Shown here one piece after another: positions 29,533-45,284 of a DNA stretch of 64,000 bases (within the stretch, counting starts at the first letter, position 1; every line of letters starts with the position of its first letter). The position numbers and the translations under genes were made by a program. The notes below the pieces were generated by a model. It did not search any database. It was not told the origin of the DNA and saw only the letters and a program-made list of their open reading frames with translations. The DNA comes from Candidatus Eiseniibacteriota bacterium (GTDB lineage Bacteria; Eisenbacteria; RBG-16-71-46; CAZAMP01): assembly GCA_965224245.1 (NCBI GenBank), contig OZ245046.1:416001-480000 (forward strand), given 5' to 3'.

Positions 29533-32055
29533 ATGAACGACCTGGATCGACGTCTAGAGGCGATCGCGCGCGTGCCGGTTCTGCTCGTGGCCACCGACTA
29601 CGACGGGACGCTCTCGCCGATCGTGCCGAATCCGGCCGAGGCGCGTCCCAACCGCGAGGCGATCGTGGCGCTCCGGAACCTGGCCGCGCTCGAGCAGACG
29701 CACGTGGCGGTGATCTCCGGCCGGGCGCTCGCGGACCTGGCGTCCCTGGCCGGGCTGCCGGACGAGGTACATCTGGTGGGAAGTCATGGCAGCGAGTTCG
29801 ATCCGGACTTCCTGGAGTCACTATCCGATCCGGCGCGGAGCCTTCGCGACGATCTGCGTGACCGGTTGACGGCGATCGCGCGCGCACACTCGGGGTTCCT
29901 CGTGGAGACCAAGCCGGCCAGCGTGGCGTTCCACTACCGGAACGCTCCCGACGACGTGGCCGTGCGTGCGCTCGCCGAGATCGAGGCCGGCCCCGGCCGG
30001 GCCGAGGGCGTTCACACGCGTCACGGCAAGAAGGTCGTCGAGCTGGCGGTCATGGACACCCACAAGGGGCAGGCGCTCGAGGCGCTTCGGTCCCGCGTCG
30101 GCGCCTCGGCCGTCGTGTTCCTGGGCGACGATCGCACCGACGAGGATGCGTTCGCGACGCTCAGGGGACCAGACCTCGGCGTCAAGGTGGGATCCGGCCG
30201 GACGATCGCGACCCACCGCGTGTCGGACACGACCGAGGTGGCGCGCCTGATCGCCCATCTGTCCGAGCGCCGGGCCGCATGGCTGCGCAACGAGACCGCC
30301 GACGGGATCGAGGAGCACGCGATGCTGTCCGATCAACGCACGGCGGCGCTGGTGTCGCCGGCGGGGCGTGTCGTGTGGTTCTGCGCGCCGCGGCTCGATT
30401 CGCCGGCGCTGTTCGCCCAGATCGTGGGCGATCCGAGCTCGGGCTCCTTCGCGATCGCGCCGGCCGGGGACGATCCCCCGCGTCCGACCCAGCGCTACCT
30501 GGACCGGACGATGGTTCTCGTGTCCGAGTGGCCGAGCGTGCGTGTGACCGACTTCCTGGATTGCTCCAGCACCGAGCTCAGCCAACGTACCGGTCGGGTC
30601 GACCTGATCCGCCTCGTCGAGGGCGCGGGACAGGTGTCGGTGACCTTCGCCCCGCGGCTCGACTACGGGAGAACCGCGACCGGCATCGAGGTGCACGAGG
30701 GGGGACTGATCGTCCAGAACGCGTTCGACCCGATCGTGCTGGCATCGCCGGGCGTGAGCTGGCGCGTGGAGACCGAGGGGCGGCATCAGACCGCGCGGGC
30801 CGAGATCGAGCTCCGGGACGAGCCGGTGGTGTTCGAGCTTCGCTATGGGACGCGCAGCCTGAGGGCCGACGTCCAGAAGGCGCTGCAGCGCCGCGACCGC
30901 ACGGCCCGCTTCTGGTCCTCCTGGTCCGCACGGCTCACGCTGCCCCGCACGCATCACGAGCTCGTGGAGCGGAGCGCACTCGTCCTGCGCGCGCTCTGTC
31001 ACGATCCCACCGGCGCGATCGCCGCCGCCGCCACCACGAGCCTGCCCGAGCACATCGGCGGCATCCGGAACTGGGACTATCGCTACTGCTGGCTCCGTGA
31101 CGGCGCCATGGCCGCGTCCTCGCTCGTCCGACTGGGCTCGTTGACCGAGGCGATGCGCTTTCTGGACTGGGTGCTCGGCGTGGTCGATCGCACGCCGTCA
31201 CCCGAGCGTCTGCGTCCGCTCTACACGCTCGTCGGGGGCGATCTCCCCCCCGAGGCCGAGATCGCCGAGCTGGCCGGGTACCGGGGCAGCCGCCCGGTCC
31301 GCGTCAGCAACGCGGCGGCCGGTCAGGTGCAGCTCGACGTGTTCGGTCCGGTGCTCGAGCTCATCCACCTGCTCCTGGAGCGCGACGCACCCCTCTTCGC
31401 CGAGCACTGGCGTCTGGCCGAGGCGCTGGTGGAGGCGGTGGCGAAGCGCTGGCAGGAGCCGGATCACGGCATCTGGGAGTTCCGCACCACGCCCCGGCAC
31501 TACGTGCACTCCAAGGCGATGTGCTGGCTCGCGGTGGACCGCGGCGCACGTCTGGCCGAGCTGTTCGCCGGACGGCGCCGTCCGGACTGGGAGGCGCTCC
31601 GCGATGCGATCGCCTCGGACGTGGAGGCGAACGCGTGGAACGAGGAGCGAGGCGCCTACACCATCGCCTACGGCTCGCGGGATCTGGACGCGTCGGTGCT
31701 GCTCGTGGGGCTCACCGGTCTGGTTCCGCCGGATCATCCGCGCTTCGTGGCGACCGTGCACGCGATCGAGCGGGAGCTCCGGCGCGGTCCGGTCGTGTAC
31801 CGGTACGATCTGGACGACGGGCTTCCGGGTGTCGAGGGCGGCTTCCACATCTGCACGTCGTGGCTCGTCGAGGCGTACCTGGCCATGGGCCGGCGTTCCG
31901 ACGCCGAGGCGCTGATGGACCGGATGTGCGAGCTGGCGGGCCCGACCGGCCTCATGTCCGAGCAGTACGGGTCGCGATCGCGCCGGGCGCTCGGCAATCA
32001 TCCACAGGCGTTCTCGCACATCGGGGTCGTCGAGGCCGCGTTGCGGCTGGGCTGA
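29533..32055 (+). CDS. otsB: Trehalose-6-phosphate phosphatase (HAD) fused to a GH15 glycoside hydrolase
   Basis: N-terminal DYDGTL, SGR, GDDRTDEDAF; C-terminal AATTSLPE--GG-RNWDYRYCWLRD, DHGIWE, LGNHPQAFSH. Confidence 0.9.
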   Translation: MNDLDRRLEAIARVPVLLVATDYDGTLSPIVPNPAEARPNREAIVALRNLAALEQTHVAVISGRALADLASLAGLPDEVHLVGSHGSEFDPDFLESLSDPARSLRDDLRDRLTAIARAHSGFLVETKPASVAFHYRNAPDDVAVRALAEIEAGPGRAEGVHTRHGKKVVELAVMDTHKGQALEALRSRVGASAVVFLGDDRTDEDAFATLRGPDLGVKVGSGRTIATHRVSDTTEVARLIAHLSERRAAWLRNETADGIEEHAMLSDQRTAALVSPAGRVVWFCAPRLDSPALFAQIVGDPSSGSFAIAPAGDDPPRPTQRYLDRTMVLVSEWPSVRVTDFLDCSSTELSQRTGRVDLIRLVEGAGQVSVTFAPRLDYGRTATGIEVHEGGLIVQNAFDPIVLASPGVSWRVETEGRHQTARAEIELRDEPVVFELRYGTRSLRADVQKALQRRDRTARFWSSWSARLTLPRTHHELVERSALVLRALCHDPTGAIAAAATTSLPEHIGGIRNWDYRYCWLRDGAMAASSLVRLGSLTEAMRFLDWVLGVVDRTPSPERLRPLYTLVGGDLPPEAEIAELAGYRGSRPVRVSNAAAGQVQLDVFGPVLELIHLLLERDAPLFAEHWRLAEALVEAVAKRWQEPDHGIWEFRTTPRHYVHSKAMCWLAVDRGARLAELFAGRRRPDWEALRDAIASDVEANAWNEERGAYTIAYGSRDLDASVLLVGLTGLVPPDHPRFVATVHAIERELRRGPVVYRYDLDDGLPGVEGGFHICTSWLVEAYLAMGRRSDAEALMDRMCELAGPTGLMSEQYGSRSRRALGNHPQAFSHIGVVEAALRLG

Positions 32056-32067
32056 GCGGGCGGTCGG

Positions 32068-33339
32068 TCACTTCTGATGGCACTGGATGCACAGGTCCAT
32101 CGCGGGATCCTTCGGCAGGTACTTCTCGAAGTCGGCGCCGTGGAGCTGGTGGCAGCTCAGGCAGGTGACCGGCGATCCGTTGCGCGGGTCGATCACGTCG
32201 GGGCCCACGGGATGAGACGTTCGATGCGCACCTTCGTGGCATCGCGCACACAGGTCCACGTCGAGCGTGCGCAGATACCTCGGATTCGCGGCTCCGTGCG
32301 GCGAGTGACACTCGCTGCACGCGACACCCGGATGCGTCATCATGTCGCTCGCCTTCCCGGAGGTGGTGGCGGTCGTCGCGGCATCACCGGCGCGAGGGGC
32401 GTCGAAGTGACACTTCGTGCAGAGGGTGCTCTGGCTCGCGGCCAGGAGATCGCTCACGGCTGACGTGTGCGGGTTGTGACAGTTCTGGCACGATCGCTCG
32501 AGGTCGAGATGACCGTGGAACGGCTCGTCGAGCGACGCCCGGATGCCCGTATGACACGTTGTGCAGAGCTCGGTGATGTCGGAGGTGACGGCGAAGGTGT
32601 CGTCGTCACGAGCCGGGCCATGGCATCCCGCGCAGTTGCCTGCCGCGAAGGGCTCGTGCTGATTCGGCCGGAGAAGACCGGATTCCGACGAGGCGTGGGG
32701 ATCGTGGCAGGCGGCGCAGTTCGCGCTCGCGAGGTTGCGCCCGTCGTGAGCCACCACGAAGCCGTCGTCGGCGTCGTGACAGTCGAGGCAGACCGCGGAC
32801 ACCCGATCCCGAAGCAGGCTCGGCTCGCCGCTCCCGTGGGGTGCGTGGCATCCGGTGCAATCCCCGTCGTCGACCGGCGGGTGCACGACCGCCGATGCGA
32901 GCCAGGCCCCGACCTGCGTGTGACAGTCGGCGCAGAGCGTGGGAGGGGCCTCGCGCAAGAGCGCCGCCCGGTCGGCCGCGTGGGGCTCGTGGCACGCCGT
33001 GCACTGACCGTGGGACGCCGGGGCGTGCACCGATTTCCGAGACAGCGACTCCGCCACGTCGTCGTGACAGCCCGTGCACAGCTCCGCCTGGTTCCTCGCG
33101 AGAAGCGCCGCGTGCCGCGAGGCGTGTGGGTTGTGACAGCCCGAGCACGTGCCGTCTCCGAACGGCGCGTGGACGTGAACTCCGTTCCGCGCCTGGTCGA
33201 TCGAGGAGTGACACTCGAGGCAGACCGTGGGCTCGTTCACGGGGGCCAGGCCCGACTGGGCCGCGGCGCTCGGCTCTGCGCCGGCGACCACGAGCACGCC
33301 GATCCCGACCAGTCGGATCCATCCGCGACGAAACCTCAT
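32068..33339 (-). CDS. Multiheme c-type cytochrome, 16 CXXCH
   Basis: ATG 33339 (ATGA overlap); signal peptide; 16 CXXCH counted, in paired H-x-P...CxxCHxPH...LL...CxxCH units. Confidence 0.92.
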   Translation of the reverse strand: MRFRRGWIRLVGIGVLVVAGAEPSAAAQSGLAPVNEPTVCLECHSSIDQARNGVHVHAPFGDGTCSGCHNPHASRHAALLARNQAELCTGCHDDVAESLSRKSVHAPASHGQCTACHEPHAADRAALLREAPPTLCADCHTQVGAWLASAVVHPPVDDGDCTGCHAPHGSGEPSLLRDRVSAVCLDCHDADDGFVVAHDGRNLASANCAACHDPHASSESGLLRPNQHEPFAAGNCAGCHGPARDDDTFAVTSDITELCTTCHTGIRASLDEPFHGHLDLERSCQNCHNPHTSAVSDLLAASQSTLCTKCHFDAPRAGDAATTATTSGKASDMMTHPGVACSECHSPHGAANPRYLRTLDVDLCARCHEGAHRTSHPVGPDVIDPRNGSPVTCLSCHQLHGADFEKYLPKDPAMDLCIQCHQK

Positions 33340-35354
33340 CGGGAGCCTCCCTCTGCCCCCGTCGGGCGATGGCACGACTCGCAGGATCCGCTCTCGAACG
33401 GCTCGTGCGTGAGGGTCTGGAACAGGCTCTCCGACGCGGACGCGTGCGGATCGTGGCACGCGCGGCAATCCAGTACCGATCCCGGCTGACCCATGTGAGC
33501 GGCCCGGAACCCGTCGTCGTCGCCGTCGTGACAGTCCAGGCATTGATCGGGAATGGCCTCGACCAGAAGCGAGGGCTCGGGGCTCCGGTGCGGCTGGTGG
33601 CAGGCGAGGCAGTCGCCGTCCTCCGCCGGGGCGTGTCGATGGGCCGCGTCCATGTGAGCCTCGAGATCCCCGTGACAGTTGAAGCACAGGCGCCGGGGCT
33701 CGTCCAGGAGGAGCGATGCGATGCGGCTCGTGTGCGGCTGATGGCAATCGGTGCAGGCGCCGTCGCCGAACGGGGCATGGGTCGTGCCGCCCGTGCCGGA
33801 GTCGGCGGCGTCGAGATCGTCGTGGCAGCCTCCGCACAGCTCGCGCTGGGTGCTGGCCAGAAGCCCGTCGTGTCGGGAGGCGTGAGGTTCGTGACACGAG
33901 TCACATTCGGAGTCTCCGAATGGAACGTGCACCTCGGTGACGGTCTCGTCCTCGACCAGCGACGCATGACACGTCATGCAGATCTCGTTGCGGTCCTCTC
34001 GCAGGAGCGAGGCGCGCTCGCCGGCATGGGGCGAGTGGCACGCCGTGCACCGGCCGATCTTGACCGGGACGTGCGTGACCTTGTCGGCGAGCCAGTCGTC
34101 GGCATCGTCGTGACACACCGCGCAGAGCTCGTAGCCGTTCGTGCGCGTCAGCTTCGGGTGGTCCGATCCGTGCGGCGTATGGCAGTCGAGACAGTCTCCG
34201 GCCTCGAACGGCGGATGCACCAGGGAGGCCTCGGTCTCGTGGCGCTGGTCGTCGTGACAGCCGAGGCACAACTCGCCCACGTCGCCGGCGATCAGCTTTC
34301 GTGACGCCTGGCCGTGCGCGTCGTGGCAGGCCAGGCAGTCCTCGCGGGCCGGGGGATGTCGGGAGGACCTGTCCAGCTCGGCGGGGAGATCGTCGTGACA
34401 GTCCACGCAGAGATCGCGCGCGGGTGCCCGTAGTAGCGCGAGCCGGCTCGAGCCGTGGGGTGAGTGGCAATCGAGGCACATCCCGTCGGCCACCGGATCG
34501 TGGGTGCCCGGGGGCGCAACGTCGGTCTCGTCGTGGCACTCGAGGCAGATGGCATTGGGTTCGCCCTCCGCCAGTGCGAACGGCTCGGCCCCGTCGGGAG
34601 CGCCATGGCACATCTCGCAGTCTCCGCTCGACACCGGATCGTGAATCGATCGCGTGAAGAGCTCGGGAGTCGGCGACGAGTGGGGCGCGTGGCAGATCGC
34701 GCAGTCCCGATCCGCAACGGGATAGCCGGCGTGAGCGTCCACGAACGACGAGGAGGACAGCTCGTGGCAGCTCGCGCAGAGTGCGTCCTGCTCGCTGACG
34801 AGAAGACCCGGGTGCTGGCCGCTGTGAACCTCGTGACACGAGAAGCAGCCGTTCTCCAGCGGGGCATGGCGATGCGCCGCCGAGAACGGCTCGCGCTCGT
34901 GACACCCGAAGCACAGCTGCTCGACGTCGGCGACGAGGAGCCCCTCCTGATCGCTCGCGTGTGGATCGTGGCAGGCGCCACAGTCGCCGTCGGCCACCGG
35001 TGCGTGGACGACCGGTGCGTCGAGGTCGACCGATTCCGCGTGGCAACGCGCGCACAGGGCGGCGCCGTCGTCGAGAAGACGGAGCGCCCCCACGAGCCCG
35101 TGCGGCTTGTGACAGGCCTTGCACTCGTTGTCCGCGACGGGTCGGTGGCGATGCCGGCCCTCGAACTCCTTCGGGTCGTGGCACTTCTGGCAGGAGCCGG
35201 AGGACGAGAAGCGGCGTCCCTTCTCGATCTGGGCCGACGCGCCGAGCGGCGTCGCGAGCAGCACGGCGAGCGCGAGCAGCCCGCCGGTCGTCGCACGTGC
35301 GAGCCACTCGACCGATCGCGTCCGGTGCGTCTGTCGCTTCTCGAGTTCGATCAT
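33336..35354 (-). CDS. Multiheme c-type cytochrome, 26 CXXCH
   Basis: Signal peptide ending ASA-Q; 26 CXXCH counted, same paired-heme repeat. Confidence 0.92.
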   Translation of the reverse strand: MIELEKRQTHRTRSVEWLARATTGGLLALAVLLATPLGASAQIEKGRRFSSSGSCQKCHDPKEFEGRHRHRPVADNECKACHKPHGLVGALRLLDDGAALCARCHAESVDLDAPVVHAPVADGDCGACHDPHASDQEGLLVADVEQLCFGCHEREPFSAAHRHAPLENGCFSCHEVHSGQHPGLLVSEQDALCASCHELSSSSFVDAHAGYPVADRDCAICHAPHSSPTPELFTRSIHDPVSSGDCEMCHGAPDGAEPFALAEGEPNAICLECHDETDVAPPGTHDPVADGMCLDCHSPHGSSRLALLRAPARDLCVDCHDDLPAELDRSSRHPPAREDCLACHDAHGQASRKLIAGDVGELCLGCHDDQRHETEASLVHPPFEAGDCLDCHTPHGSDHPKLTRTNGYELCAVCHDDADDWLADKVTHVPVKIGRCTACHSPHAGERASLLREDRNEICMTCHASLVEDETVTEVHVPFGDSECDSCHEPHASRHDGLLASTQRELCGGCHDDLDAADSGTGGTTHAPFGDGACTDCHQPHTSRIASLLLDEPRRLCFNCHGDLEAHMDAAHRHAPAEDGDCLACHQPHRSPEPSLLVEAIPDQCLDCHDGDDDGFRAAHMGQPGSVLDCRACHDPHASASESLFQTLTHEPFESGSCESCHRPTGAEGGSR

Positions 35355-35370
35355 CTCGTTGCCCGGTCGA

Positions 35371-37068
35371 TCACGATTTGTCGCCGAGATAGGCCGTGAT
35401 CGCCGCCTCGTCGATCACGATCTCCGAGCGCTCACGCAGGAGGTCGAGGTGCCGGTCGAGCGCTTCGTTGAACTTCCGCCGGAACATGACCTGCCGGATC
35501 GGCATCTCGACGTCGTCCAGAGCCTTCACCCGCCCCGGTCGCTTGCCGAGCACCTTGAACACGAGCCATCCGTGATCCACGTCCAGCGCATCGCTGGTCC
35601 CACCGACGGGGAGTCGCGCGATCTCGTCCCGGATCGCGTCGGAGAAGAGGGACTCGGACACCCACCTGGGCTCGGACTGCAGCCCCTCGGTCTCCGAGCT
35701 CACGTACTGGCGCTCGACGTACGAGAAGTCGGCGCCGTCTCGCAGACGCGCCGCGATCTCGCGGGCCTCCTCCTCGAAGTCGGTCGTGATCGTAGCCAGT
35801 TGGACCTCGTCGCCCTCGCGAAAGTCGTCCTGGTGAGACTCGTAATACTCCTGGAACTCCTGCCGGTTGAACACGATCTTCGAGGCCACGGTCTCCTGGA
35901 GGTAGCTCTCGATCAGCGCCTGCTCGAGGTCGCGCTCGTAGAGCTCCACGATCTCGGGCACGTCCATGAAACCCGCCTCCTCGGCGGCCCGCGCGAGGAC
36001 GAGGTCCTCGGTCAGGTCGTCGATCGTGGCCCGGAGGTGTGTCGCGAACGGGATCCGGGAGTCGGCGAGCGCCTGGTGTGCCACCGCCGCCCGGAGCTCG
36101 GTCTCGGTCACGCCCTCACCGTTCTCGAAGCCCAGCGCGACGTCGTCCGATCCGCGTCGGAACTCCCCCAGGAGCACCCGGCCGGAGTCGGCGGCCACGC
36201 GCTCGAGCACGGGGGTCGAGCGCGTCACCGGAAAGCGGGTTCGATGCTCGTCCACGTACGCCGTCCAGCGGGCCTTGCCGCTCTCGGACTCCAGGTACTT
36301 CCGGATGCCCGGTGAGATGCTCTCGTACTCGTCCTCGTCGATGGGGTGCCGTTCGTCCACCCGCACGATGGAGTGGAGCGTGTTGTACGGGAACGGCTCG
36401 GAGATGTCGCCGGTGTCGAGGCCGGCGACCGCGTCCTTGACCACGGTCTCGACGTCGGCCCAGGGCTTCAGCTGGTGCCGGCCGCCGCGATAGCGGAAGC
36501 TGTCCCGCGAGCGCTCGACGGCCAGGCTGTCCCACGAGGCGCCGCGCACGAGCATGTCTCGGAGCTCGCGCGCCTCGGCCTCGGTGTCCACCGAGAGCTG
36601 GCTCAGCTGGATCTTCCAGAAGTACCGCTCGAAGCGCTCGCGGACCGCCGCCTCCGCGACCGGATCGGGAGGCGTCCACGTCGCGCGGACGTAGGCCCGG
36701 ACCGCGTTCCGCTGGCGTCGGTCCTGAACCGGCCCGACCACGCGCTCGTCGAGGTCGAGCTCGGTGGCCAGGGCCTGCTGCACGAGCAGCCGGTCGTTGA
36801 TGGCCTTGGTCAGCAGGCGGCTGAAGTCGAAGTCCCCCTGCCGAGTCATGTCCTCGGTGGCGTGCATCGCCATGATGGCCGAGTCGAGCATGGCGGTCGT
36901 GATCGAATCGCCGTTGACGATGGCGAGCGTGACGGGTTCGGAGGGTGTCACCCCGGGCGCGGCGGCCGGTGCGCCGGACGAGGGCGGGTCGTCGGCCCGA
37001 ACGTTCGAGGCCAGCACGACCAGGATGCCGGCCGCCGCCAGCGCCCCGCGGAGATCAAGGTGTGTCAT
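35371..37068 (-). CDS. SurA/PpiC-type peptidyl-prolyl isomerase chaperone with two parvulin domains
   Basis: LAIVNGDSIT; GASWDSLAVERS-D...GG; ISEPF; second domain GADF...GGTSD. Confidence 0.85.
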   Translation of the reverse strand: MTHLDLRGALAAAGILVVLASNVRADDPPSSGAPAAAPGVTPSEPVTLAIVNGDSITTAMLDSAIMAMHATEDMTRQGDFDFSRLLTKAINDRLLVQQALATELDLDERVVGPVQDRRQRNAVRAYVRATWTPPDPVAEAAVRERFERYFWKIQLSQLSVDTEAEARELRDMLVRGASWDSLAVERSRDSFRYRGGRHQLKPWADVETVVKDAVAGLDTGDISEPFPYNTLHSIVRVDERHPIDEDEYESISPGIRKYLESESGKARWTAYVDEHRTRFPVTRSTPVLERVAADSGRVLLGEFRRGSDDVALGFENGEGVTETELRAAVAHQALADSRIPFATHLRATIDDLTEDLVLARAAEEAGFMDVPEIVELYERDLEQALIESYLQETVASKIVFNRQEFQEYYESHQDDFREGDEVQLATITTDFEEEAREIAARLRDGADFSYVERQYVSSETEGLQSEPRWVSESLFSDAIRDEIARLPVGGTSDALDVDHGWLVFKVLGKRPGRVKALDDVEMPIRQVMFRRKFNEALDRHLDLLRERSEIVIDEAAITAYLGDKS

Positions 37069-38143
37069 GTCGTGCCCTTTCCACGTGCATCACGATGCCG
37101 CGCACGATCTCGGCGGCCGAGGCCGCGGCCAGTCCACCCAGCGAGTGGCACCGCCCGAGCTGAAGGATTTTGTCGGAGTCACCCCCGTCACGTGAATCGT
37201 GGAAGGCCGAAACGACCTTGCCGGTCTCCGCATCGATCAGCCGGGCGCCGACCTCGAGCTCCGGCACCGACAGGGTCGGCTCACCGCGCGCCGGCTCGCA
37301 GCGCTCGACGGTGCCGGTCACGACGTACGCCAGGGCGAGATCGCCGTGGACGCTGGCCAAACCCGGGTAGTCGACGGCGCCACGGGCGGAATGGCGCCCG
37401 CTCAGGAGGATCTCGGACAGATAGCCGGGCTCGAGGACGGTGAGCCCGGCGCTCACGAGCGCCGAGGTGAGGGGCCCGGCGAACAGGCCGGCCCCGGCCG
37501 GATGCTCGGAGGCGTCGTCGAAGGCGATAACGCCCACGAGGGCGTTCGTCTTCGGGCCGTTCCGCAACTGGGTCCGCAGCGCGTCGCGGAGGCCGTCGAC
37601 CGCGCGTGACACGACGCGTTCGGCCACCGCCTCCACGTCGTCGATGCGTCCCGCGCCGAAGGCTCCGGCGAAGTCCTCGCCGGTGGCCGCCGTGCTGGCC
37701 GCCCAGGCCAGGAGACCCGTCTCCGGATCCAGCACCCGCAGCGAGATGGCCACGTCGGGGTTGGCACCGCCTTCGAAGACGTCGACCGACCCCAGGAGCA
37801 GCCGGGAGACGCCGGTCTCGTCCGCCAGCAGGCGGGCGCCGGTCGGTCCGATCCGGCCGAGGCTCCGGATCCGATGGCGCCTGAGGATCGGCCTGAGCGC
37901 CTCGTCCGACAGGAACGCGATGCCGGTGCGGGTCAGCTCGCGCCGGAGGTCGGCCATCACGACCGTGAGCGCGTCGCTCGTACCCGCATGGTTGGCGAAG
38001 GGGACGATGGCGATCTCCGCCGGCACGGAGACGTCCGGGGGCACGCCGCCGTCGGCAGCGGTCGCCCGTCCGAGCGCCGGGGCAAGGATGGCCAGGAGCG
38101 CGGCCAGCGCGCCCGTTCGCATGTAGGCTCGGAGGTGATCCAT
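37055..38143 (-). CDS. Secreted protein with two CsgG/GNA1162-like domains
   Basis: IAIVPFAN...VAISLRVLDPETG; VGVIAFDD...ARLIDAETGKVV. Confidence 0.7.
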   Translation of the reverse strand: MDHLRAYMRTGALAALLAILAPALGRATAADGGVPPDVSVPAEIAIVPFANHAGTSDALTVVMADLRRELTRTGIAFLSDEALRPILRRHRIRSLGRIGPTGARLLADETGVSRLLLGSVDVFEGGANPDVAISLRVLDPETGLLAWAASTAATGEDFAGAFGAGRIDDVEAVAERVVSRAVDGLRDALRTQLRNGPKTNALVGVIAFDDASEHPAGAGLFAGPLTSALVSAGLTVLEPGYLSEILLSGRHSARGAVDYPGLASVHGDLALAYVVTGTVERCEPARGEPTLSVPELEVGARLIDAETGKVVSAFHDSRDGGDSDKILQLGRCHSLGGLAAASAAEIVRGIVMHVERARHDTP

Positions 38144-38150
38144 TTCACGC

Positions 38151-38741
38151 TCAGTTCACGAGTGTTCCGACGCACTTCTCGACGCAGCGGCGCGTGACCT
38201 CGCCGATCGACGGAGTTCCGGTGCCGAACAGTGATGACCAGAAGCCCCGCCCGCCTTCGGTGTGGGTCGTGGACCACACGGTCTGGCCGGTATCGGTCTC
38301 GATCATGCGCAGCGAGATCGTCACATAGTTGGACGAGGCGGATCCGGAGCGAACGGTCGCCGACTCGCCGATCGAGCCGACGAACAGGCCCTGGGCGCGC
38401 AGCTCCTTGCCGACCGCCTTGGCCTGCTCCTCGGTGATCTGCGCCCCGTCGAGGACGCCGTTGGCCGACAGGGCACGGGTCACCTCGCCGGGCTCGACCA
38501 CGTCGAACGCCTCGGTGGCCAGGAGCTCGGACACGAGATAGCGTGTCGCCCGGGCACCTGCCCCCTGATCACCCGTGAGGTTCTCGATCGAGACCACCGC
38601 CACCCGCTCCACGTAGTCGAAGTTGAAGCTCGGGTGCACGAACGTCGTCGCTCCCATGCCCGCACATCCAGCCAGGACTCCGGCCAGGACTCCGGCCAGG
38701 ATCGGCCGCGCGAGTCGAGTGTCCGAGGTCTTCCGTCTCAC
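38151..38741 (-). CDS. CsgG/GNA1162-like lipoprotein
   Basis: Lipobox LAGC; RVAVVSIENLT; FDVVEPGEV; SLRMIETDTGQTVWS. Confidence 0.8.
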   Translation of the reverse strand: MRRKTSDTRLARPILAGVLAGVLAGCAGMGATTFVHPSFNFDYVERVAVVSIENLTGDQGAGARATRYLVSELLATEAFDVVEPGEVTRALSANGVLDGAQITEEQAKAVGKELRAQGLFVGSIGESATVRSGSASSNYVTISLRMIETDTGQTVWSTTHTEGGRGFWSSLFGTGTPSIGEVTRRCVEKCVGTLVN

Positions 38742-38756
38742 GGCGTTCTCCCGACG

Positions 38757-40859
38757 CTAGAAGACAATCCGGAACCCCTGCTGGAACGACACGGTCGACG
38801 TGCCGCCGACGGCGGTCTGGTCCAGGTCGACGATGCCGGCATAGAGGCTCCCGCGTGATCCCATTCCGTACGTCGTCTGGAGGCTGTAGCGCTCCGATCG
38901 CGTGCGGCCGTCCGATGTGTTGATCTGAGCCTGTGCGTTCATGCTCACCCGGGGGCTCAGGCTCCAGGCCACGAGGACGTCCCGGACGACGTCACGGCGC
39001 GTGTCGTCGGTGACGTTCAGTGACGCCCGGGAGAGTATCGTCCGCGTGAGGCGTAGGTCGAGCCCCACGCGCATCGTCGTCCGCGTGCGGACGAGGTCGT
39101 CGGACGCCCGGGTCGTCCGCTGGCGCAGCACGGAGGCATCGAGATTCAGGTCTCGCCGGAGCGCGGCGCTTCCGCCCACGCGAAACGTCCACGAATCGAG
39201 TCGCCGCGAGCCGGCGTAGTCGTGATCACGCGATCGCGCGACGTCAGCCACCATGTCCAGCCCCGTGACCGGTGTCCCCGACAGCTGGAGGCTCGCGGTG
39301 TTGTTCTCCTCCACCTTCGTGTGGTCGATGAGGCCGTGCCGGCTGCGCAGCGACATCTTCGCCCGCGCGGTCGGCAGCGGATCGACCTCGGCGGTGTAGG
39401 TCGCGGCGTGCGTCGACTGAGCCACGCGGTCGGTCCCCAGCCCGCGAAAGTCCTGCTCCCAGCGCAGCGTGTGCCGGACGATCTCGGACGGCTCGTAGAC
39501 TCCCCAGGTCGTGTAGGCGTAGTCGTCCCGGGACGCGCGTCCCACCGATGGCACGTGCCGGTACGCCGTGTCGAGCGAGAGCGTGACCGCATCGGACGCC
39601 GTGTACCGGAGACGCGCATCGGCCTGGTGGGCGTTCAGCACGTGCTCGACCGGGTCGCCGCTCCCCAGCTCCTCGAACGCCGTCACCTCGGTCACGTAGA
39701 CGGTCTCGACGACGTTGAAGCCGCCGCTGACGACCTTCACATACCGCGTCTCGACCGCGGGGAACACGATCTCGTAGCGGTTCTGGGTCGCGTTGAACAG
39801 GGTGCCGGGGAGCCCGTCCACCAGCCGCCACGAGAGGTTGTCGGCCGAGACGAAGACGCGCCAGCTGACGCCGTCACCCGATGCACGATCGGTGTAGACG
39901 TACACCGCGGCGACCCGCTGCGCGAGCCCGAGATCGACGCCGAGGTTCCGGTCGAGAGCGTCACCGCCGACGTCGATCGGGGGAGAGGTCGGCGCGTCGG
40001 TCATGCCGTCGACGAGCCCGGAGACCGTGTCGAGCGATCCGAGCTCCGGGGACGCGTCCAGGGCGTACACCCCGCGGCCGGCCGACAGCGGCACGAGGAT
40101 GACGTCGCCCGAGATCGTCTCGTCGCGGCGCCGCGTGTGCTGGTGCGTGTAGCTCCAGCTGACCCGCATGCGGTCTCTCGCGACCGGGGCCGGACGTGCG
40201 TCCCAGCGCAGGATGGACTCGAGCCGGCTGGTCCGGGCATCGGTCACCACGTTGTCCGAGCGCCGGTGCTCGAGCTGAGCGGTGATCGACTGTCGGCGGG
40301 ACACGTGATCGATGGCGCCGAGCAGCCGTCGTTCGCGCGTGTCTCGCTCGGAGGCCGCGCGATCGAAGGCCCGGCTGGCGTCGTAGCGGAGCGTCAGGAT
40401 GGGGCGCGTCTCGGCTCGGGTGCGCAGGAAGATCGACCAGTCGTCGTTGGTCACGTTCTGTGCCGCGTCGAGGGCGGTGGCCTGGCGTCGTCGCGCGTTG
40501 GCGTTCAACGTGAATCGGGGATGCGTCCAGATGATCTCGCCGCTCGGCTGGGCGTCCTCCCGCCAGAAGGTCGAGGACTCGACGTCGCGCAGGCCGAAGC
40601 GAAAGTAGGTGATGCCGAGTCGGACCTTCAGACGCGGATCGACCTGGCGGTGCCAGGCGAGCCGATGCTGCTGGCGAACGCTGGAGCGGGACTGGCCGTC
40701 GATGTCGGTCTGGACCGCCGAGACGTCGACGCTGCCGCTGAGGTTGCCCGCCGCGACGACGGGTCCCGCCGCGATCGCGAGAACGAATCCGCCGGCGAGG
40801 GCCACTGATCGCGCCGGCCGTGCCGCGCGCGACCGGGCTCGAGACCGTGGGGTACGCAT
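38757..40859 (-). CDS. Outer-membrane beta-barrel protein with an inserted discoidin (F5/8-C)-like domain
   Basis: Alternating amphipathic strands; ends QGFRIVF (aromatic C-terminus); internal LVDG...GVDLG...VSADNLSW...TRYVKV; start uncertain. Confidence 0.7.
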   Translation of the reverse strand: MRTPRSRARSRAARPARSVALAGGFVLAIAAGPVVAAGNLSGSVDVSAVQTDIDGQSRSSVRQQHRLAWHRQVDPRLKVRLGITYFRFGLRDVESSTFWREDAQPSGEIIWTHPRFTLNANARRRQATALDAAQNVTNDDWSIFLRTRAETRPILTLRYDASRAFDRAASERDTRERRLLGAIDHVSRRQSITAQLEHRRSDNVVTDARTSRLESILRWDARPAPVARDRMRVSWSYTHQHTRRRDETISGDVILVPLSAGRGVYALDASPELGSLDTVSGLVDGMTDAPTSPPIDVGGDALDRNLGVDLGLAQRVAAVYVYTDRASGDGVSWRVFVSADNLSWRLVDGLPGTLFNATQNRYEIVFPAVETRYVKVVSGGFNVVETVYVTEVTAFEELGSGDPVEHVLNAHQADARLRYTASDAVTLSLDTAYRHVPSVGRASRDDYAYTTWGVYEPSEIVRHTLRWEQDFRGLGTDRVAQSTHAATYTAEVDPLPTARAKMSLRSRHGLIDHTKVEENNTASLQLSGTPVTGLDMVADVARSRDHDYAGSRRLDSWTFRVGGSAALRRDLNLDASVLRQRTTRASDDLVRTRTTMRVGLDLRLTRTILSRASLNVTDDTRRDVVRDVLVAWSLSPRVSMNAQAQINTSDGRTRSERYSLQTTYGMGSRGSLYAGIVDLDQTAVGGTSTVSFQQGFRIVF

Positions 40860-41061
40860 GGCGTCACGGGACCGCGATCTCGATGGATGCGGCCGCGACC
40901 GGAACGGAGCGGCGTGTCCGGCTCCGCTCCGCGAACCGGTCCGATGGACCTCGGCTGACGATGCCAGACATGGGCTGCCCCCAGGTGTCGCCCGGGTCGA
41001 GAGCCGACCCGGGCGCAACGTGCGTGAAGAAGCCTCAACAAGTCGAGATTGACCCGTCGGA

Positions 41062-42138
41062 TCAGCCCGCGAGGCCGGCGATGCGCGGCGGCGGCGGGGT
41101 GAAGTCGATCAGGGCGTCGCCCTCATCCTTGTTGTGACACTTGTTGCACAGCGAGCGCTGATAGACCGAGTACGGGTTCGGGATCTTGTAGGAGCCCGAC
41201 TCGTGCCCGTCTTCTTCGAGACCGGTCACGTTGAAATCCCAGCGACCCGCGTTGGGCGCCGAGGTTGCATGTGCCCGGTGGCACGTGATGCACGAGACCT
41301 GACTGCCGGCGGACGGCCCTGCGGTCGATCCGACGGCGGCGGTGGCGTCTTCGAACGGGACCGCGGCGAGATACGCCGTGGCCTGAACGCCCCCGAGCTG
41401 GTCGTCGGTGCCGTTGTACAGGTTGTACGTGCTGGCGATGGTCCCACCAACCGGTTCACCCGCGGGGTGAATGAGCTCGGCGCTCTGGTGGTAGTCGCCG
41501 TGGCAGTTCGCGCACCAGCCGCTCATACCGCCCCTGTAGGCCGTATGATTGCTGTTCGACTCGCCGGCCCCGAAGAGGCTGAGCCCATCGGCGTCGGGAG
41601 CCGCCATCGTGAACGTGTACAGCCCGTCCTGGACGGACCCCGGACCGTAGAGCAGCCGGAAGTTCGCGTTGCCGTGAGGATCATGGCAGCTCGAGCATCC
41701 GAGCTCGCTCGACGGGAAGGTCCCGCCGGGCGCCATGCCCAGGACCGGATCGGCCCCGACGCCCTTGGACGGCGCGACCACGCTGTGTCCGGCCGCATGG
41801 CCGAGGATCGGCTCGCTGGCGCCGCCGTGACCGTCGTTGATGTTGTCTTCGAGGAGGAACGTGAAGTTGCCGGCGCCCCGCTCTGTCGCGGGAGCCAGCG
41901 GGTCGTCCACGAAGACCGCACCGAGGCCGTTTGCGTGACAGCCCAGACAGACGTCACTGGGAGTGGCGGCCTTGAGAAGCCAAGCGTGTGGCCCCGCAGG
42001 GTCTACCGGAGCTCCGTCTTCGCTGTTGTGCATCGTGTGGCAGCCGTTGCAGTGAGCCACACCTTCATCGTGGAAGGCGAGCACAGGCGACGCGCACACG
42101 ACGCTCACGCCGAGTGCGACGAGAACAGCCCTGCGCAT
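41062..42138 (-). CDS. omcS: OmcS-family hexaheme cytochrome (nanowire-type)
   Basis: GGAGG RBS; mature N-terminus FHDEGVAHCNGCHTMHN; APGGTFP--LGCSSCHDPHG; GMSGWCANCH; CITCHRAHA; QRSLCNKCH-KD; 6 CXXCH, colinear with recalled Geobacter OmcS. Confidence 0.88.
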   Translation of the reverse strand: MRRAVLVALGVSVVCASPVLAFHDEGVAHCNGCHTMHNSEDGAPVDPAGPHAWLLKAATPSDVCLGCHANGLGAVFVDDPLAPATERGAGNFTFLLEDNINDGHGGASEPILGHAAGHSVVAPSKGVGADPVLGMAPGGTFPSSELGCSSCHDPHGNANFRLLYGPGSVQDGLYTFTMAAPDADGLSLFGAGESNSNHTAYRGGMSGWCANCHGDYHQSAELIHPAGEPVGGTIASTYNLYNGTDDQLGGVQATAYLAAVPFEDATAAVGSTAGPSAGSQVSCITCHRAHATSAPNAGRWDFNVTGLEEDGHESGSYKIPNPYSVYQRSLCNKCHNKDEGDALIDFTPPPPRIAGLAG

Positions 42139-42232
42139 CTTTCCACCTCCGCATTGAGATACTGAAGAACGAACGGGCGATCGCGTTCGCGACCGTCCTG
42201 GGATCACCGAGTCTCGATCATTCGCTACCCTC

Positions 42233-43324
42233 CTACCCGTGCGGCTCGGCTGGACCGAGCGGGGTGATGGTCGTCGTGTGGCTTTCCGGGCCACTGTTCT
42301 CCGGGTGAAGATCGGTCCTGACGAAATCGGGGAGACGGCAGATCTCGACCTTGCTTCGGAACACCTGGCCGACGTAGACGCGGCCCCGACCGTCGGCACC
42401 CAGGAGGCTCGGGTAGTAATACCAGCCGGGGCTGATCCCCCGTCCGCCGAACTCACCGCGAAACCGGCCACCGCGGTCGAAGCAGACGACGGTGAACCGG
42501 TTGCGGTCGAGGACGAGCACGAGATCGCCCCCGGTGACGGTCACATCGACCGGGAAGTTGAGCGAGCCGATCTCGGTACCCTTGGAGCCGACGCTGCGCC
42601 GGAACGTGCCGTCGCGCTCGTAGACGAACACGGTGCCGAGGGACGCCGCCGGCAGCCAGACGAGGTCGTCGTGCACCGAGAGCGAGCCGAGGACGGCCTT
42701 GCGGTCGACGACGTCGCCGGTCGCGTCCCGAACCGGGAAGTCGTCCACGAGACGACCGGATGGCTCGTGCTGCGAGATGCGCGGACCGCTCCGGTCGAGG
42801 ACGAAGAGATGCACACCGTCGTGCGCGATGCTCGCGGGCACGATCGGCTCGGCGCCGGGCTCGAGGACGACCTCGTCGATGAACGTCCCATCGAAGTCGA
42901 ACCGGAACACGCGCGGACCCGACTCCGTGGATCCGAGGACAAAAATGTAGCCCTCCACGTCGACGGCCACGTCGAGCGGAGCGGCGAAGCGGTCGCGACC
43001 GTCGAACTCGTACTTGTAGGTGCCGTCCACGTCGAAGATCGTGATCCGGTTGCGACCCGCATCGGCTACGAACACCTCGTCGTGGGTGCGGTCCACGAAG
43101 AGCGCCGACGGACGGACGAAGAGATTCTCGACGCCCGGCGGGTCCAGGCGGTCGATCAGCTCCGCGGGCCGGGACCGGGTATCTGCAAGGGTCGACCCCG
43201 CCGCCGAGCAGACGAGTCCGCCGGCGAGAAGGACGAGGACGGCACTCCGTTCCGGTCGCCGGTGGGAGGCGATCGGAAGCCGGGCCTCGGCGTTGTGAGT
43301 CGATCCGGTGTTAGGCACGGGCAA
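42233..43324 (-). CDS. NHL-repeat six-bladed beta-propeller protein
   Basis: VFVADAGRNRI, PLDVAVD, LNFPVDV, GGRG--PGWYYYP; hydrophobic signal; start uncertain. Confidence 0.85.
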   Translation of the reverse strand: MPVPNTGSTHNAEARLPIASHRRPERSAVLVLLAGGLVCSAAGSTLADTRSRPAELIDRLDPPGVENLFVRPSALFVDRTHDEVFVADAGRNRITIFDVDGTYKYEFDGRDRFAAPLDVAVDVEGYIFVLGSTESGPRVFRFDFDGTFIDEVVLEPGAEPIVPASIAHDGVHLFVLDRSGPRISQHEPSGRLVDDFPVRDATGDVVDRKAVLGSLSVHDDLVWLPAASLGTVFVYERDGTFRRSVGSKGTEIGSLNFPVDVTVTGGDLVLVLDRNRFTVVCFDRGGRFRGEFGGRGISPGWYYYPSLLGADGRGRVYVGQVFRSKVEICRLPDFVRTDLHPENSGPESHTTTITPLGPAEPHG

Positions 43325-43706
43325 AACCTCGCGAAGACAGCCAGACAGGTTAACGACTGCCGTTCGCTACCGACCATCGTGGTTTCCCCGTATGCGCGTT
43401 CGAAACGGCGCGCTCGGCCCACGGAAGTGAATGGTGTTCGAGGTCCGGTCCAGCGGGCGGAGGGCAGCTGGAGCCGGGGTTGCAGGACAGGCGAACGGTC
43501 CCGCCGGGTCGCCCGAACTTCCGACGGCGTGACGTATCGCGGAACGACACTAAAGTCGCTCGGCCGCGGCGTGCGGGTCGCCGGAGGGGCGAGGATCGAG
43601 GCCGGCGCGGTGGTCTGCCGCCGTCGCCCGGCGCCGGCGTTCCAGGCCGCCTGGATCGCCTGCCCGAGCCGCGGGCCCGATGTCGGACACGAGCGAAATC
43701 GGAGAC

Positions 43707-43740
43707 AAAAAGAGAGGACGCCGGGTCACGGCGTCCTCTC
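43707..43740 (-). terminator. Intrinsic terminator of the 43765-44691 gene
   Basis: Perfect 12-bp stem GAGAGGACGCCG/CGGCGTCCTCTC followed by TTTTT on the minus strand. Confidence 0.85.
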
Positions 43741-43764
43741 GTCGTTTCGGTCGGCTGGCCGGCG

Positions 43765-44691
43765 TCAGCGATACAGCGACTTGATCCGGCTCCAGCTTCG
43801 GTCGAGCGTCGGCGTCGACGAGTCGCAGTCGTACGGTCCGCTGAGACCGTTGTTGAACTCGTCGAAGATCTCGGTCAGCGCACTCGTCACGGCTGGCTCG
43901 AGGAACCCCGTGCCGATCGGGGGCACGACGAGGTCGCCGATCAGCGCGTCCGCTTCCGCGAGCGCGTCGAGGACCGAGGCCGCGTTCGCGCCGTTCTCGA
44001 TGTTCAGCCGCGTCGCGATGAGCTGGTGCGCGAGCGACACGAGACCGTTGCCCTCCACCGGCTGGTGCAAGATGTCGTTGAGCTCGGCCAGGTTGTAGAG
44101 GACGTTGCCGAGCATGATGACGTTGGTCGGCCAGTTCTCGAGGTGGTTCTTCCAGTAGCCCTGCGTGAACACGCACTCGTCGTCCGTGCCCACGGCGAGC
44201 GTCGCCTTGTACAAGGTGGGGCCCTTGGCGCTCGGATCCCACGCGCCGCCGCCGTTGGCGAAGATCGTGAAGACGTAGTCCGTGCCGTAGCCGAGCTCTC
44301 GCCAGTCGTTCGCGATCACGCCGGTCTCGTCGGCGATGTCACCCAGCTGAATGGTGATGGACTCACCGGGGGCCAGCAGGAACGTCTCCGGCTCGCCCGG
44401 AAACGCGTTCAGCGTCGGGCTTCCGTAGTAGTGCACGAGGTGCTGACTGATCGACTCCGGAGTCCACAGCTCGCCGTCGGAGAGGAAATCCGCTTCGGTG
44501 GCCCACAAGACGGTGAACCCATTCGGTGCACCGGTGGCTCCGGCGGTCACGAGAAACTCCGCGCGACCCTTGCCCGGCTCCACGAACCGCAACGTCGGGG
44601 TGTCCACCTCGATGGCGGAAGCCGTGCCGGCGAACAACGTGGCAGTCGAGGCAAGTCCGATGCAGAACGCGGCAGTGCGTCGGCGATGCAT
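43765..44691 (-). CDS. Secreted hypothetical protein with TQGYWKNH motif and C-terminal SWSRIKSLY motif
   Basis: GGAGGA RBS; signal ending ASA-I; CVFTQGYWKNH; LAHQLIATRLN; ends PTLDRSWSRIKSLYR. Confidence 0.8.
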   Translation of the reverse strand: MHRRRTAAFCIGLASTATLFAGTASAIEVDTPTLRFVEPGKGRAEFLVTAGATGAPNGFTVLWATEADFLSDGELWTPESISQHLVHYYGSPTLNAFPGEPETFLLAPGESITIQLGDIADETGVIANDWRELGYGTDYVFTIFANGGGAWDPSAKGPTLYKATLAVGTDDECVFTQGYWKNHLENWPTNVIMLGNVLYNLAELNDILHQPVEGNGLVSLAHQLIATRLNIENGANAASVLDALAEADALIGDLVVPPIGTGFLEPAVTSALTEIFDEFNNGLSGPYDCDSSTPTLDRSWSRIKSLYR

Positions 44692-44716
44692 TACTTTCCT
44701 CCGTTGCTATTTCAAC

Positions 44717-44760
44717 TGATCCAGGAACGCAATCATGATCCAGGAACGCAATTCAGTATA
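44717..44760 (-). promoter_or_regulatory. TATACT -10 box followed by a 17-bp direct repeat (TGATCCAGGAACGCAAT x2 on +)
   Basis: Repeat copies at 44717-44733 and 44736-44752; AGTATA at 44755-44760 on +. Confidence 0.55.
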
Positions 44761-45284
44761 GACCAGATGAGCCGCGCATGTGTGGATTTTCGTGCAAAGG
44801 CGCGACCGGCTCCGGGGCCCCGGCTGGAACGCATTCGTCAATCGAGATGCTTCCCGGCACGCCCGGGCTTGGTCGCGCTCCGGACACGAACTGCCGAGAC
44901 ATTGCGCCCGGCCTCGCGCGTGTAGGTGACGCTGTCGGACGCCGCGGAGACCAGGACGAGGCCGCGTCCGCCAGTTTGCGCGGTTTCTAGGGATTCAGTG
45001 GCTCGAGATACCCCGGCGATGGCGGCGGCCACGTCGAAGGGGGGCCAATCCGAGGCGGCGGTCCCTTGCGGCGAGGCACGAGCTCGTCTGGGACAGACGA
45101 GCGGCCATTGGCCGTGCCGTCCCTCGCGGCGTGTACGTCCTCGCGGTCACGTCCGGGACTGACGGGGTCGGCCGGATGCGAAGGTATCGCGCTCGACTGA
45201 CGTCACGTTGCCTGTTCGGTGCCGGGAGTTCGCTTCTCCGGGTGACGACGATCACCCGGAGACCCTCCCCCGAAAGGAGTTCCG

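Follow-up and report, generated by a model that had tools for sequence, protein, structure and literature searches.

Can a bacterium outside Geobacter build a cytochrome nanowire from one short run of genes? The question is raised by a stretch of 64,000 nucleotides from a Candidatus Eiseniibacteriota bacterium (contig OZ245046.1 of assembly GCA_965224245.1, positions 416,001 to 480,000; hereafter the window), in which eight co-oriented genes occupy positions 32068-43324 of the minus strand. They encode an NHL propeller, a hexahaem OmcS-family cytochrome (S, the subunit), a barrel protein (E), two PelC-like proteins (F and G), a two-parvulin protein (H), and two large cytochromes with 26 (I) and 16 (J) CXXCH motifs. 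The initial annotation, made from the DNA alone, took them for a complete OmcS-type nanowire and assembly locus in a non-Geobacter lineage. Judged by homology and gene order, the locus is an osc-type cluster reduced to counterparts of GSU2505, OmcS and OscEFGHIJ. We consider it likely that this compact osc-type system builds, exports and wires an OmcS-family surface cytochrome, which probably polymerises. We read it so because of homology and because of the roles reported from Shen et al. (via PMC13194489) and for GSU2505 (via PMC9070056). Homology, gene order, folds, and the conservation of haem ligands and haem counts form the basis; from them we infer the export route, the polymerisation, and the path and direction of the electrons.

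In the mechanism that we propose, all eight products, whose N-termini look signal-like by eye, would be exported by Sec. The hexahaem OmcS-family protein would receive its haems from the Ccm system of the genome and be folded by the two-parvulin, OscH-like chaperone. It would then cross the outer membrane through an OscE-like barrel of ~28 strands, capped on the periplasmic side by a PelC-like ring of the OscF-like lipoprotein and the tandem OscG-like protein. At the surface, subunits would polymerise head to tail in the fashion of OmcS, with His37 (aligned with OmcS His16) ligating a haem of the next subunit. The 26-haem and 16-haem cytochromes would conduct electrons through the periplasm as far as the filament base. 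The GSU2505-like NHL propeller would aid assembly or expression, and a hairpin 3' of the subunit gene would keep subunit mRNA above machinery mRNA.

Comparison with the Geobacter sulfurreducens osc locus

All eight frames are intact in the list of open reading frames (ORFs). The NHL propeller gene (42233-43324, starting at TTG 43324 or GTG 43318) is followed after 94 nucleotides (nt) by the subunit gene (41062-42138; 358 amino acids (aa), six CXXCH) and, after a gap of 202 nt, by the gene for the OscE-like barrel (38757-40859; 700 aa). From there the spacing is tight. The gene for the OscF-like lipoprotein (38151-38741; 196 aa) begins 15 nt downstream, and that for the OscG-like tandem-domain protein (37055-38143; 362 aa) 7 nt further on. 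The gene for the OscH-like two-parvulin (PPIC-type) protein (35371-37068; 565 aa) overlaps its predecessor by 14 nt, the OscI-like cytochrome (33336-35354; 672 aa, 26 CXXCH) follows after 16 nt, and the OscJ-like cytochrome (32068-33339; 423 aa, 16 CXXCH) overlaps it by 4 nt (ATGA). The initial annotation had described eight co-oriented genes, the last six tightly coupled or overlapping, with 48 CXXCH in total and a GC content of ~70%. The coordinates and spacing agree with that description, our recount gives 6+26+16 = 48 motifs, and the measured GC content is 0.67-0.73 throughout, the same as in the surrounding genome. Each domain call has library support from Pfam and NCBIfam (NHL/DUF5128; Paired_CXXCH_1; LpoB/CsgG/GNA1162-like; Rotamase_2 twice).

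As a reference locus we used that of a genome with an ORF matching residues 1-407 of OmcS (PDB 6ef8_A) at 937.8 bits; because of this match we take the genome to be that of G. sulfurreducens. On its minus strand stand, in series, a 327-aa NHL protein, OmcS, OmcT, a 1035-aa membrane protein, a third hexahaem protein and a 498-aa propeller with one CXXCH, and then a 729-aa protein, a 199-aa lipoprotein, a 392-aa lipoprotein, a 578-aa parvulin, a 660-aa cytochrome with 26 CXXCH, a 446-aa cytochrome and a 301-aa NHL protein. The names oscC (GSU2501), oscI (GSU2495) and oscJ (GSU2494) appear in a passage of PMC13194489; the letters between oscC and oscI were interpolated here.

From the first NHL protein through the second large cytochrome, the window locus has the same gene order as this cluster (GSU2505/GSU2504-GSU2494), a sequence match for every gene, and the same Pfam architectures. 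The NHL protein matches GSU2505 (blastp E 1.8e-15 in a small database; reciprocal), the barrel protein GSU2499 (blastp E 3.6e-16; E 2.4e-14 at genome scale), and the F lipoprotein GSU2498 (33% identity, E 6e-30; reciprocal). The 26-haem cytochrome matches GSU2495 over its full length (35% identity, E 1e-140; 26 CXXCH each), and the 16-haem cytochrome matches GSU2494 (36% identity, E 1e-44). Full-length matches in a small database join G to GSU2497 (20% identity, E 1.8e-12) and H to GSU2496 (19% identity, E 8e-11). When the 6.9-Mb genome was searched in the reverse direction, window genes were the sole matches of GSU2505 (E 9e-7), OscE and OscF, and the best matches of OscI, OscJ, OmcS and OmcT. 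On the Geobacter side, Pfam finds NHL/DUF5128 in GSU2505, GNA1162-like/LpoB in OscF and Rotamase_2 twice in OscH, and nothing in OscE and OscG.

The initial annotation had the companion genes lying in the osc order. This stands for the six genes after the subunit gene, which correspond to OscE-OscJ one after another, by reciprocal match or by position; the propeller is a different matter, since it corresponds to GSU2505, which is not an Osc letter gene. A hairpin 3' of the subunit gene is common to both clusters. They differ in that the window locus lacks an adjacent sigma-54 regulator or kinase, that window G lacks the lipobox present in GSU2497, that window J has 16 CXXCH and GSU2494 has 10 by the same regular expression, and that the window machinery proteins are just 19-33% identical to those of Geobacter.

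The hexahaem subunit and its family

The hexahaem protein had been called OmcS-like, and its sequence bears this out: it is a genuine member of the OmcS family. Among all PDB chains, OmcS (6ef8_A) is its only significant phmmer match (E 5.8e-40; stretches 22-158, 164-302 and 321-338). In blastp against the G. sulfurreducens proteins it is 34% identical to OmcS at 176 bits, with OmcT at 145 and OscC at 144 bits, and its Pfam domain is Paired_CXXCH_1. The signal-peptide-like N-terminus ends in ...PVLA; the predicted mature start, FHDEG, aligns with the first residue of the 6EF8 chain.

The six CXXCH motifs occur in the same order as in OmcS (GSU2504; PDB 6EF8, 6NEF) and are invariant in 13 of 13 aligned family members. 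Seven further His are likewise kept in all 13 (OmcS H2, H16, H110, H147, H247, H257 and H335), and every one of these is present in the window protein. The two proteins also share the N-terminal motif F-H-x-x-G-V-A-x-C-x-G-C-H-T-M-H-N-S and the C-terminal motif L-C-N-K-C-H. His37 of the window subunit aligns with OmcS His16, which in the 2019 structures reportedly ligates a haem of the neighbouring subunit. Inter-subunit coordination of haem by His is described for OmcS in a passage of PMC12307469 that does not number the residue.

A family tree was built from 76 hexahaem proteins, namely 71 from related loci together with the window protein, its paralogue, OmcS, OmcT and OscC (OmcJ was not in the tree), by quick IQ-TREE with Shimodaira-Hasegawa-like approximate likelihood ratio (SH-aLRT) support only. 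Two candidates were dropped beforehand, one aligned over <250 query residues and one of >520 aa. Clade A (30 rows, support 99) consists of short proteins of ~350 aa, among them the window subunit, from genomes labelled Zixibacteria, Ignavibacteria, Krumholzibacteriota, Fibrobacteria, Gemmatimonadota and Acidobacteriota. Clade B (31 rows, support 99) is made up of sequences from Desulfuromonadia, Nitrospirota and 'delta' genomes and contains OmcS, OmcT and OscC. What remains is a third well-supported group of 8 rows and distant sequences from Chloroflexota, Deinococcota and Coriobacteriia. Because the window protein falls in the sister clade of theirs, it is, on this tree, a co-orthologue of OmcS, OmcT and OscC together and not of OmcS alone. 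Of these types, OscC has been suggested as possibly ancestral in a recent preprint (10.1101/2025.11.06.686851).

Within clade A, the window subunit belongs to a 16-row subclade that is linked to osc genes and in which phylum labels are intermingled. The initial annotation counted one omcS copy. That is right for the locus; the genome holds a second OmcS-family protein, 53% identical (C1:3739996-3741138, minus strand; 380 aa, 7 CXXCH) and unlinked to osc genes. This paralogue belongs to another subclade of A (11 rows, most of them without a link to osc genes), and it is the best genomic match of Geobacter OscC. The genes downstream of it look, by eye, like putative haem-biosynthesis genes.

Propeller and probable export machinery

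The first gene of the locus encodes a six-bladed beta-propeller with an N-terminal hydrophobic, signal-like segment and Pfam matches to NHL and DUF5128. It has no CXXCH and no BLAST match to OscD, which by Pfam is a propeller of another kind (YncE/cytochrome-d1-type). By reciprocal match the window propeller is the counterpart of GSU2505, not of OscD. GSU2505 has been described, in a passage of PMC9070056, as 'possibly required for assembly/expression of OmcS'. For the Osc proteins, a summary of Shen et al. 2025 assigns folding to OscH, secretion to OscE/F/G and filament morphology to OscD (PMC13194489).

An AlphaFold2 model of the barrel protein (23-row alignment; predicted local distance difference test (pLDDT) 86.6) has 11 long strands, an insert and 17 more strands (~28). 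The insert is a beta-sandwich domain at about residues 254-398; it is the part that aligns with Geobacter OscE, it holds most of the near-invariant columns, and a weak Pfam F5_F8_type_C_2 match covers residues 302-376. Going by the strand parity that is usual in outer-membrane barrels, this domain would lie in an extracellular loop. Foldseek placed MtrB first (6r2q_B; E 3e-9, template-modelling score on the query (TMq) 0.38, 7% identity), with TonB-dependent receptors and the PapC and FimD ushers next. Because all TM-scores are low (0.23-0.38), this result shows only that the modelled protein is a large outer-membrane barrel. The barrel family comprises 457, 257 and 101 representative clusters at E 1e-3, 1e-10 and 1e-30, respectively, among 1.84 billion representatives.

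The F lipoprotein has the lipobox LAGC and matches LpoB (30.3 bits), CsgG (22.9 bits, threshold 20.8; a partial match over profile positions 34-149 of 210) and GNA1162-like profiles in Pfam. The G protein has a signal peptide, no lipobox and no Pfam match, to CsgG or otherwise. Its model (22-row alignment; pLDDT 88.5, predicted TM-score (pTM) 0.84) consists of tandem alpha/beta domains at residues 44-195 and 202-359, for which Foldseek ranked GNA1162 (4hrv), PelC (5t10) and PelBC (9h80) at the top and then CsgG (4uv2, E 6e-6), LpoB, FlgT and the TolB N-domain. Both proteins had been called CsgG-like. The fold family was rightly named, and F passes the Pfam CsgG threshold, but PelC, GNA1162 and LpoB score better, CsgE/CsgF partners are lacking, and in predicted fold F and G look more like PelC/GNA1162 rings than like the CsgG channel.

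The closer working analogue is probably the PelBC exporter, in which a dodecameric PelC ring lies under the PelB barrel (5T10, 9H80). F and G share the PelC/GNA1162 fold (Foldseek E 2e-8 to 1e-7; TM-score on target 0.63-0.77), and their genes adjoin that of a large outer-membrane barrel. The likeness is one of fold only; unlike that of PelBC, the cargo would be a folded haem protein and not a polysaccharide, and G is a tandem duplication. With a large barrel encoded separately, the pore need not be made by F and G. The H protein contains two Rotamase_2 stretches (Pfam, E 6e-23), the same layout as in GSU2496.

The 26-haem and 16-haem cytochromes

Pfam finds 14 and 8 Paired_CXXCH_1 stretches in the I and J cytochromes, respectively. 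Orthologues of I have exactly 26 CXXCH in 19 related loci and in GSU2495, and orthologues of J have exactly 16 in 13 related loci; the other rows of the haem-count table are truncated ORFs or matches to non-orthologous cytochromes. Haem counts so fixed across phyla suggest a wire of fixed length. The DmsE/MtrA-family NCBIfam model gives 269.5 bits for I and 178.6 for J (cut-off 192.2), scores that are sums over stretches of a generic repeat. At its N-terminus (residues 24-74) J bears a weak likeness to NrfH (NCBIfam E 6e-10), which leaves a small chance that the locus is self-contained.

Distribution, conservation and the hairpin after the subunit gene

Of 8000 candidates scored in a word-indexed protein search with the subunit, 4259 passed at E 1e-5. 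The best 120 of these are ~350 aa long and 63-77% identical to the query, and 11 of these 120 are named: Eisenbacteria (4), Zixibacteria (2), Acidobacteria (2), Gemmatimonadota (1), Delongbacteria (1) and 'bacterium' (1). Species-representative genomes yielded at least 141 confirmed relatives and at least 70 loci, and our synteny counts rest on the loci listed from these genomes (tblastn with the eight window proteins). Of the listed loci, 41 extend 9 kb or more downstream of the subunit gene; 13 of them have all of E-J (12 colinear and one, L014, inverted), 23 have F and I or more, and 11 have none of E-H. These figures fall short for distant loci, in which G and H are too diverged for tblastn to detect. 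Sixty listed loci reach 1.3 kb or more upstream, and 32 of these have an NHL homologue. The gene order of the window locus is met again in genomes labelled Zixibacteria, Ignavibacteria, Krumholzibacteriota, Fibrobacteria and Acidobacteriota. In the family of a Geomonas genome, 28 of the 87 genomes searched have a match. Going by the related loci above, the short-form cluster, built around a ~350-aa subunit, is common outside Geobacter.

Between S and E, the loci L006, L011, L013, L015 and L024 and those of Geomonas and Nitrospirae have an OscD orthologue of 480-500 aa; none was found in the window or in L004, L005, L008, L010, L012 or L025. OscD is thus present in some short-form clusters and not in others, and it is therefore optional there. 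A 364-aa lipoprotein encoded 6 kb beyond the window locus (25063-26157, minus strand) was considered as a displaced OscD. It is a seven-bladed propeller of the YncE/lactonase/cytochrome-d1 type with only repeat-level similarity to OscD (pairwise E 9e-8 over ~140 aa), and we rejected it since it has neither a CXXCH nor the N-terminal part of OscD.

When eight full short-form loci are compared with the window locus, subunit identity is 59-69%. Identities are lower in most of the other proteins (NHL 36-41%, barrel 26-32%, F 41-61%, G 29-35%, H 32-41%, I 41-50%, J 30-50%). Because the excess of conservation is peculiar to the subunit, recent transfer of the whole cluster cannot explain it. Strong purifying selection on the subunit sequence can, and this would fit a polymer packed with haems.

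At 40989-41015 (minus strand), 47 nt past the stop codon of the subunit gene, there is a strong GC-rich hairpin. Each of the 13 other short-form loci examined (L003-L008, L010, L012, L013, L015 and L024-L026) has an equivalent hairpin 3' of its subunit gene, which makes 14 of 14 with the window. The best 45-nt segment in these loci has a folding energy of -20 to -34 kcal/mol. When compared with shuffles that kept mononucleotide composition only, this was reached by 0 of 40 in 10 of the 14 loci and by at most 3 of 40 in the rest. Hairpins also stand 3' of omcS and omcT in G. sulfurreducens and of the subunit gene in the long-form loci L054, L047 and L045; the NHL-omcS spacer, used as a control, was unremarkable (14 of 40 shuffles reached it). 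The hairpin at 40989-41015 is a probable partial terminator or mRNA stabiliser and, by analogy with pilin operons, probably sets the subunit in excess over the machinery.

Alternatives to the proposed exported filament

Several observations weigh against a locus that exports and polymerises its cytochrome in the way of OmcS. Two loops of OmcS (about residues 148-190 and 340-390) are missing from the subunit, which is for this reason ~70 residues shorter, and in the tree it is equally related to OmcS, OmcT and OscC. The word 'complete' in the initial annotation must be withdrawn, since OmcT, OscB (GSU2502), OscC (GSU2501), OscD (GSU2500) and GSU2493 of the Geobacter locus are all absent from this one; the reverse search found no counterpart of OscD or GSU2493 in the window, and OscB-like genes are present elsewhere in the genome. 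The similarity of G and H to Geobacter proteins (19-20%) is significant in the small database only. In the reverse search at genome scale, OscG reached only the F gene, weakly, and OscH had no match at E 1e-4, so the identities of G and H rest on position, length and architecture. The closest structural match of the barrel, MtrB, sheathes a cytochrome and does not export one. No inner-membrane quinol dehydrogenase is encoded within the locus. A scan of 31000-46000 with Rfam at E up to 1 found no GEMM or other riboswitch, a further difference from the Geobacter cluster (the sole signal was a sub-threshold 'g2' at 45233-45267), and a scan for sigma-70-type promoters gave 0 sites where 0.6 were expected.

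Could the same genes make a conduit without a filament? In such a porin-cytochrome complex, the barrel would sheathe part of the 26-haem or 16-haem cytochrome, as MtrB does MtrA, the hexahaem protein would act as a terminal reductase, surface-exposed or periplasmic, in the form of monomers or short oligomers, and the PelC-like ring and the chaperone would only assist assembly. It is true that MtrB heads the Foldseek list of the barrel. As in MtrCAB-type complexes, moreover, a large outer-membrane barrel gene is found alongside genes for periplasmic multihaem cytochromes, and these two very long cytochromes are translationally coupled to the machinery genes. The TM-score to MtrB is low, however, with TonB-dependent receptors and ushers nearly equal, the window barrel has ~28 strands and an inserted beta-sandwich, and there is no homologue of the decahaem MtrC at the curated cut-off. 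According to 10.1101/2025.11.06.686851, polymerisation is known for only one of the four G. sulfurreducens OmcS paralogues, wire formation among OmcS, OmcT and OscC being known only for OmcS; and the window subunit is not a specific orthologue of OmcS. Against this, a summary of Shen et al. has OscE/F/G needed for the secretion of OmcS (PMC13194489). The conservation of the subunit above that of its machinery and the terminator-like hairpin both fit an abundant structural polymer. In addition, none of the His conserved in OmcS has been lost from the subunit, and this holds for the one aligned with the presumed inter-subunit ligand His16. Taken with the low structural scores, these points make a conduit without a filament unlikely in our view.

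The host and the direction of electron flow

The host had been described as apparently non-Geobacter, and RecA agrees with this. Of ten named RecA matches among the best 120, eight are 'Candidatus Eisenbacteria'. In a RecA tree of 28 rows, all eight Eisenbacteria-labelled RecAs group with the window protein in a clade of 22 rows (support 97), from which the RecAs of genomes labelled Zixibacteria, Ignavibacteria, Krumholzibacteriota and Gemmatimonadota are excluded. Plain RecA identity, at 62-67% to genomes of five differently labelled phyla, did not discriminate. Because the tree is a quick one from a single gene, with rows chosen from the best matches, we call the host, an uncultured bacterium, Eisenbacteria-like; by this tree it is clearly not a member of the Desulfuromonadia. 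One metagenome-assembled genome (MAG) labelled Candidatus Eisenbacteria, that of L021, has two RecA copies (L076 and L077) with an in-frame TGA in each match, and its RecA groups with a Krumholzibacteriota genome and not with other Eisenbacteria-labelled RecAs; its label or bin is doubtful.

A search of the genome for haem maturation genes, as had been proposed, located Ccm system I (CcmE, CcmF and CcmC at C1:531233-537162) and did not find ResB (system II). Genome-wide, 31 ORFs have at least four CXXCH, with 228 motifs in all. Two of the multihaem proteins, of ~510-525 aa, carry an NrfH/NapC-like segment at residues ~107-216 (C1:745466-747040 and C1:1422747-1424267, both plus strand), and one of the two adjoins a gene for a 14-haem cytochrome. 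We regard these two as candidate quinol-side partners, that is, inner-membrane quinol dehydrogenases that could feed the conduit.

Two genes for subunit I of haem-copper oxidases are also present, and the host is therefore no strict anaerobe of the Geobacter kind. With these oxidases, the same hardware might instead serve an inward flow of electrons, from Fe(II), minerals or partner cells into aerobic or microaerobic respiration; multihaem chains are reversible in principle. A Krumholzibacteria MAG with OmcS and the iron oxidase gene Cyc2 was similarly described, in PMC7914226, with the direction left open. No cue to direction is found anywhere in the locus, and the characterised homologue serves the reduction of Fe(III) and electrodes, as passages of PMC12307469 and PMC10954620 report. 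We hold inward flow to be distinctly improbable but, because of the two oxidases, leave the direction open within the filament reading that we prefer.

In a sample of the host phylum, 10 of 201 genomes (that of the window included) and 9 of 82 genera have the subunit gene; among high-quality genomes the figure is 6 of 121, and the single further genome sampled from the host family lacks it. Because subunit identities within the phylum (up to 70%) are no higher than those across phyla, and because phyla intermingle in the subunit tree, these sequences suggest horizontal spread of the subunit gene, bearing in mind that MAG labels can be wrong. Of the sequencing runs listed as containing the locus, four are DNA runs from a single study and none is an RNA run. 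That the cluster is a silent or decaying acquisition, with no current function in the host, is hardly credible: the patchy occurrence and the mixing of phyla would allow it, but the eight intact frames with coupled or overlapping starts, a GC content equal to that of the surrounding genome, the complete set of haem motifs and ligands, and the Ccm maturation genes all speak against it.

A possible minimal nanowire kit

An exported and polymerising OmcS-family subunit thus being the reading that we favour, we tentatively put forward a wider one, which we think possible but doubtful. The short-form clade, with its ~350-aa subunit, NHL protein, OscEFGH and 26-haem and 16-haem cytochromes and without OscB, OscC and OscD, could be a natural, minimal and self-sufficient nanowire kit that has spread horizontally through phyla of the Fibrobacterota-Chlorobiota-Bacteroidota (FCB) group and Acidobacteriota, including facultative aerobes like this host. 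The tight conservation of the subunit may then reflect a filament in which nearly every residue is constrained, and the invariant 26-haem protein may be a periplasmic wire of fixed length. The 16-haem protein, given its NrfH-like N-terminus, may even be a membrane-anchored point of electron entry, so that the eight genes would make up the full route from quinol to surface.

The novelty of the locus has to be rated much lower than at first sight, because the osc machinery is already called 'widespread and ancient', reportedly in the title of Shen et al. 2025 (Cell Chem Biol 32:239), and because OmcS is already known from Krumholzibacteria. Earlier work reports OmcS genes in that group (PMC7914226), and PMC8478452 describes iron-reduction genes, not specified as OmcS, in MAGs of Zixibacteria and Ignavibacteriales. 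A literature search on OmcS together with these phyla found no description of the short-form cluster, which the taxon survey of Shen et al. 2025 may list. The kind of system is known; what is particular here is a compact, OscD-less architecture around a subunit of the sister clade, with three regularities, in subunit conservation, haem counts and the hairpin.

If the short-form subunit polymerises, nanowire-based extracellular electron transfer would be common and transferable in uncultured soil and sediment phyla and not a speciality of Geobacter, with a bearing on how iron and carbon cycling are assigned to taxa in metagenomes. At 11.3 kb and eight genes, the cluster is the smallest natural osc-type set seen here. 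Because five genes of the Geobacter locus are absent from it, it is a convenient candidate for heterologous reconstitution of a nanowire. OscD, OscB and the extra paralogues appear dispensable, and the cluster lets one ask which parts are required. It also offers three hypotheses: a fixed length of the periplasmic wire, a subunit-to-machinery stoichiometry set by the hairpin, and an export architecture like that of PelBC.

Genes flanking the locus

An intrinsic-terminator-like hairpin at 43702-43740 (minus strand) marks the upstream edge of the locus, where a strong terminator had been noted before. Its stem of 12 bp, 9 of them GC pairs, spans 43740-43712 on the minus strand around a 5-nt loop and is followed by TTTTTGTCTC (a T run). 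The gene that it ends (43765-44691, minus strand) encodes a 308-aa secreted protein without known family and is unrelated to the locus. We considered this protein as a possible member and rejected it, as it has no Pfam match and no homologue among the 70 related loci listed, and the terminator stands between. Next to it upstream lie dnaX, recR and recA. On the downstream side, a trehalose synthase/phosphatase-trehalase pair (28086-32055, plus strand) converges on the locus. As first described, no regulator or ATPase gene adjoins the locus among the flanking genes examined, all of them unrelated to it.

Two further genes of the window encode surface proteins unrelated to the locus. One is a 938-aa protein (4370-7186, plus strand) that ends in a FlgD-Ig-like domain, possibly a C-terminal sorting domain. 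The other is a 753-aa protein with LVIVD repeats (508-2769, minus strand).

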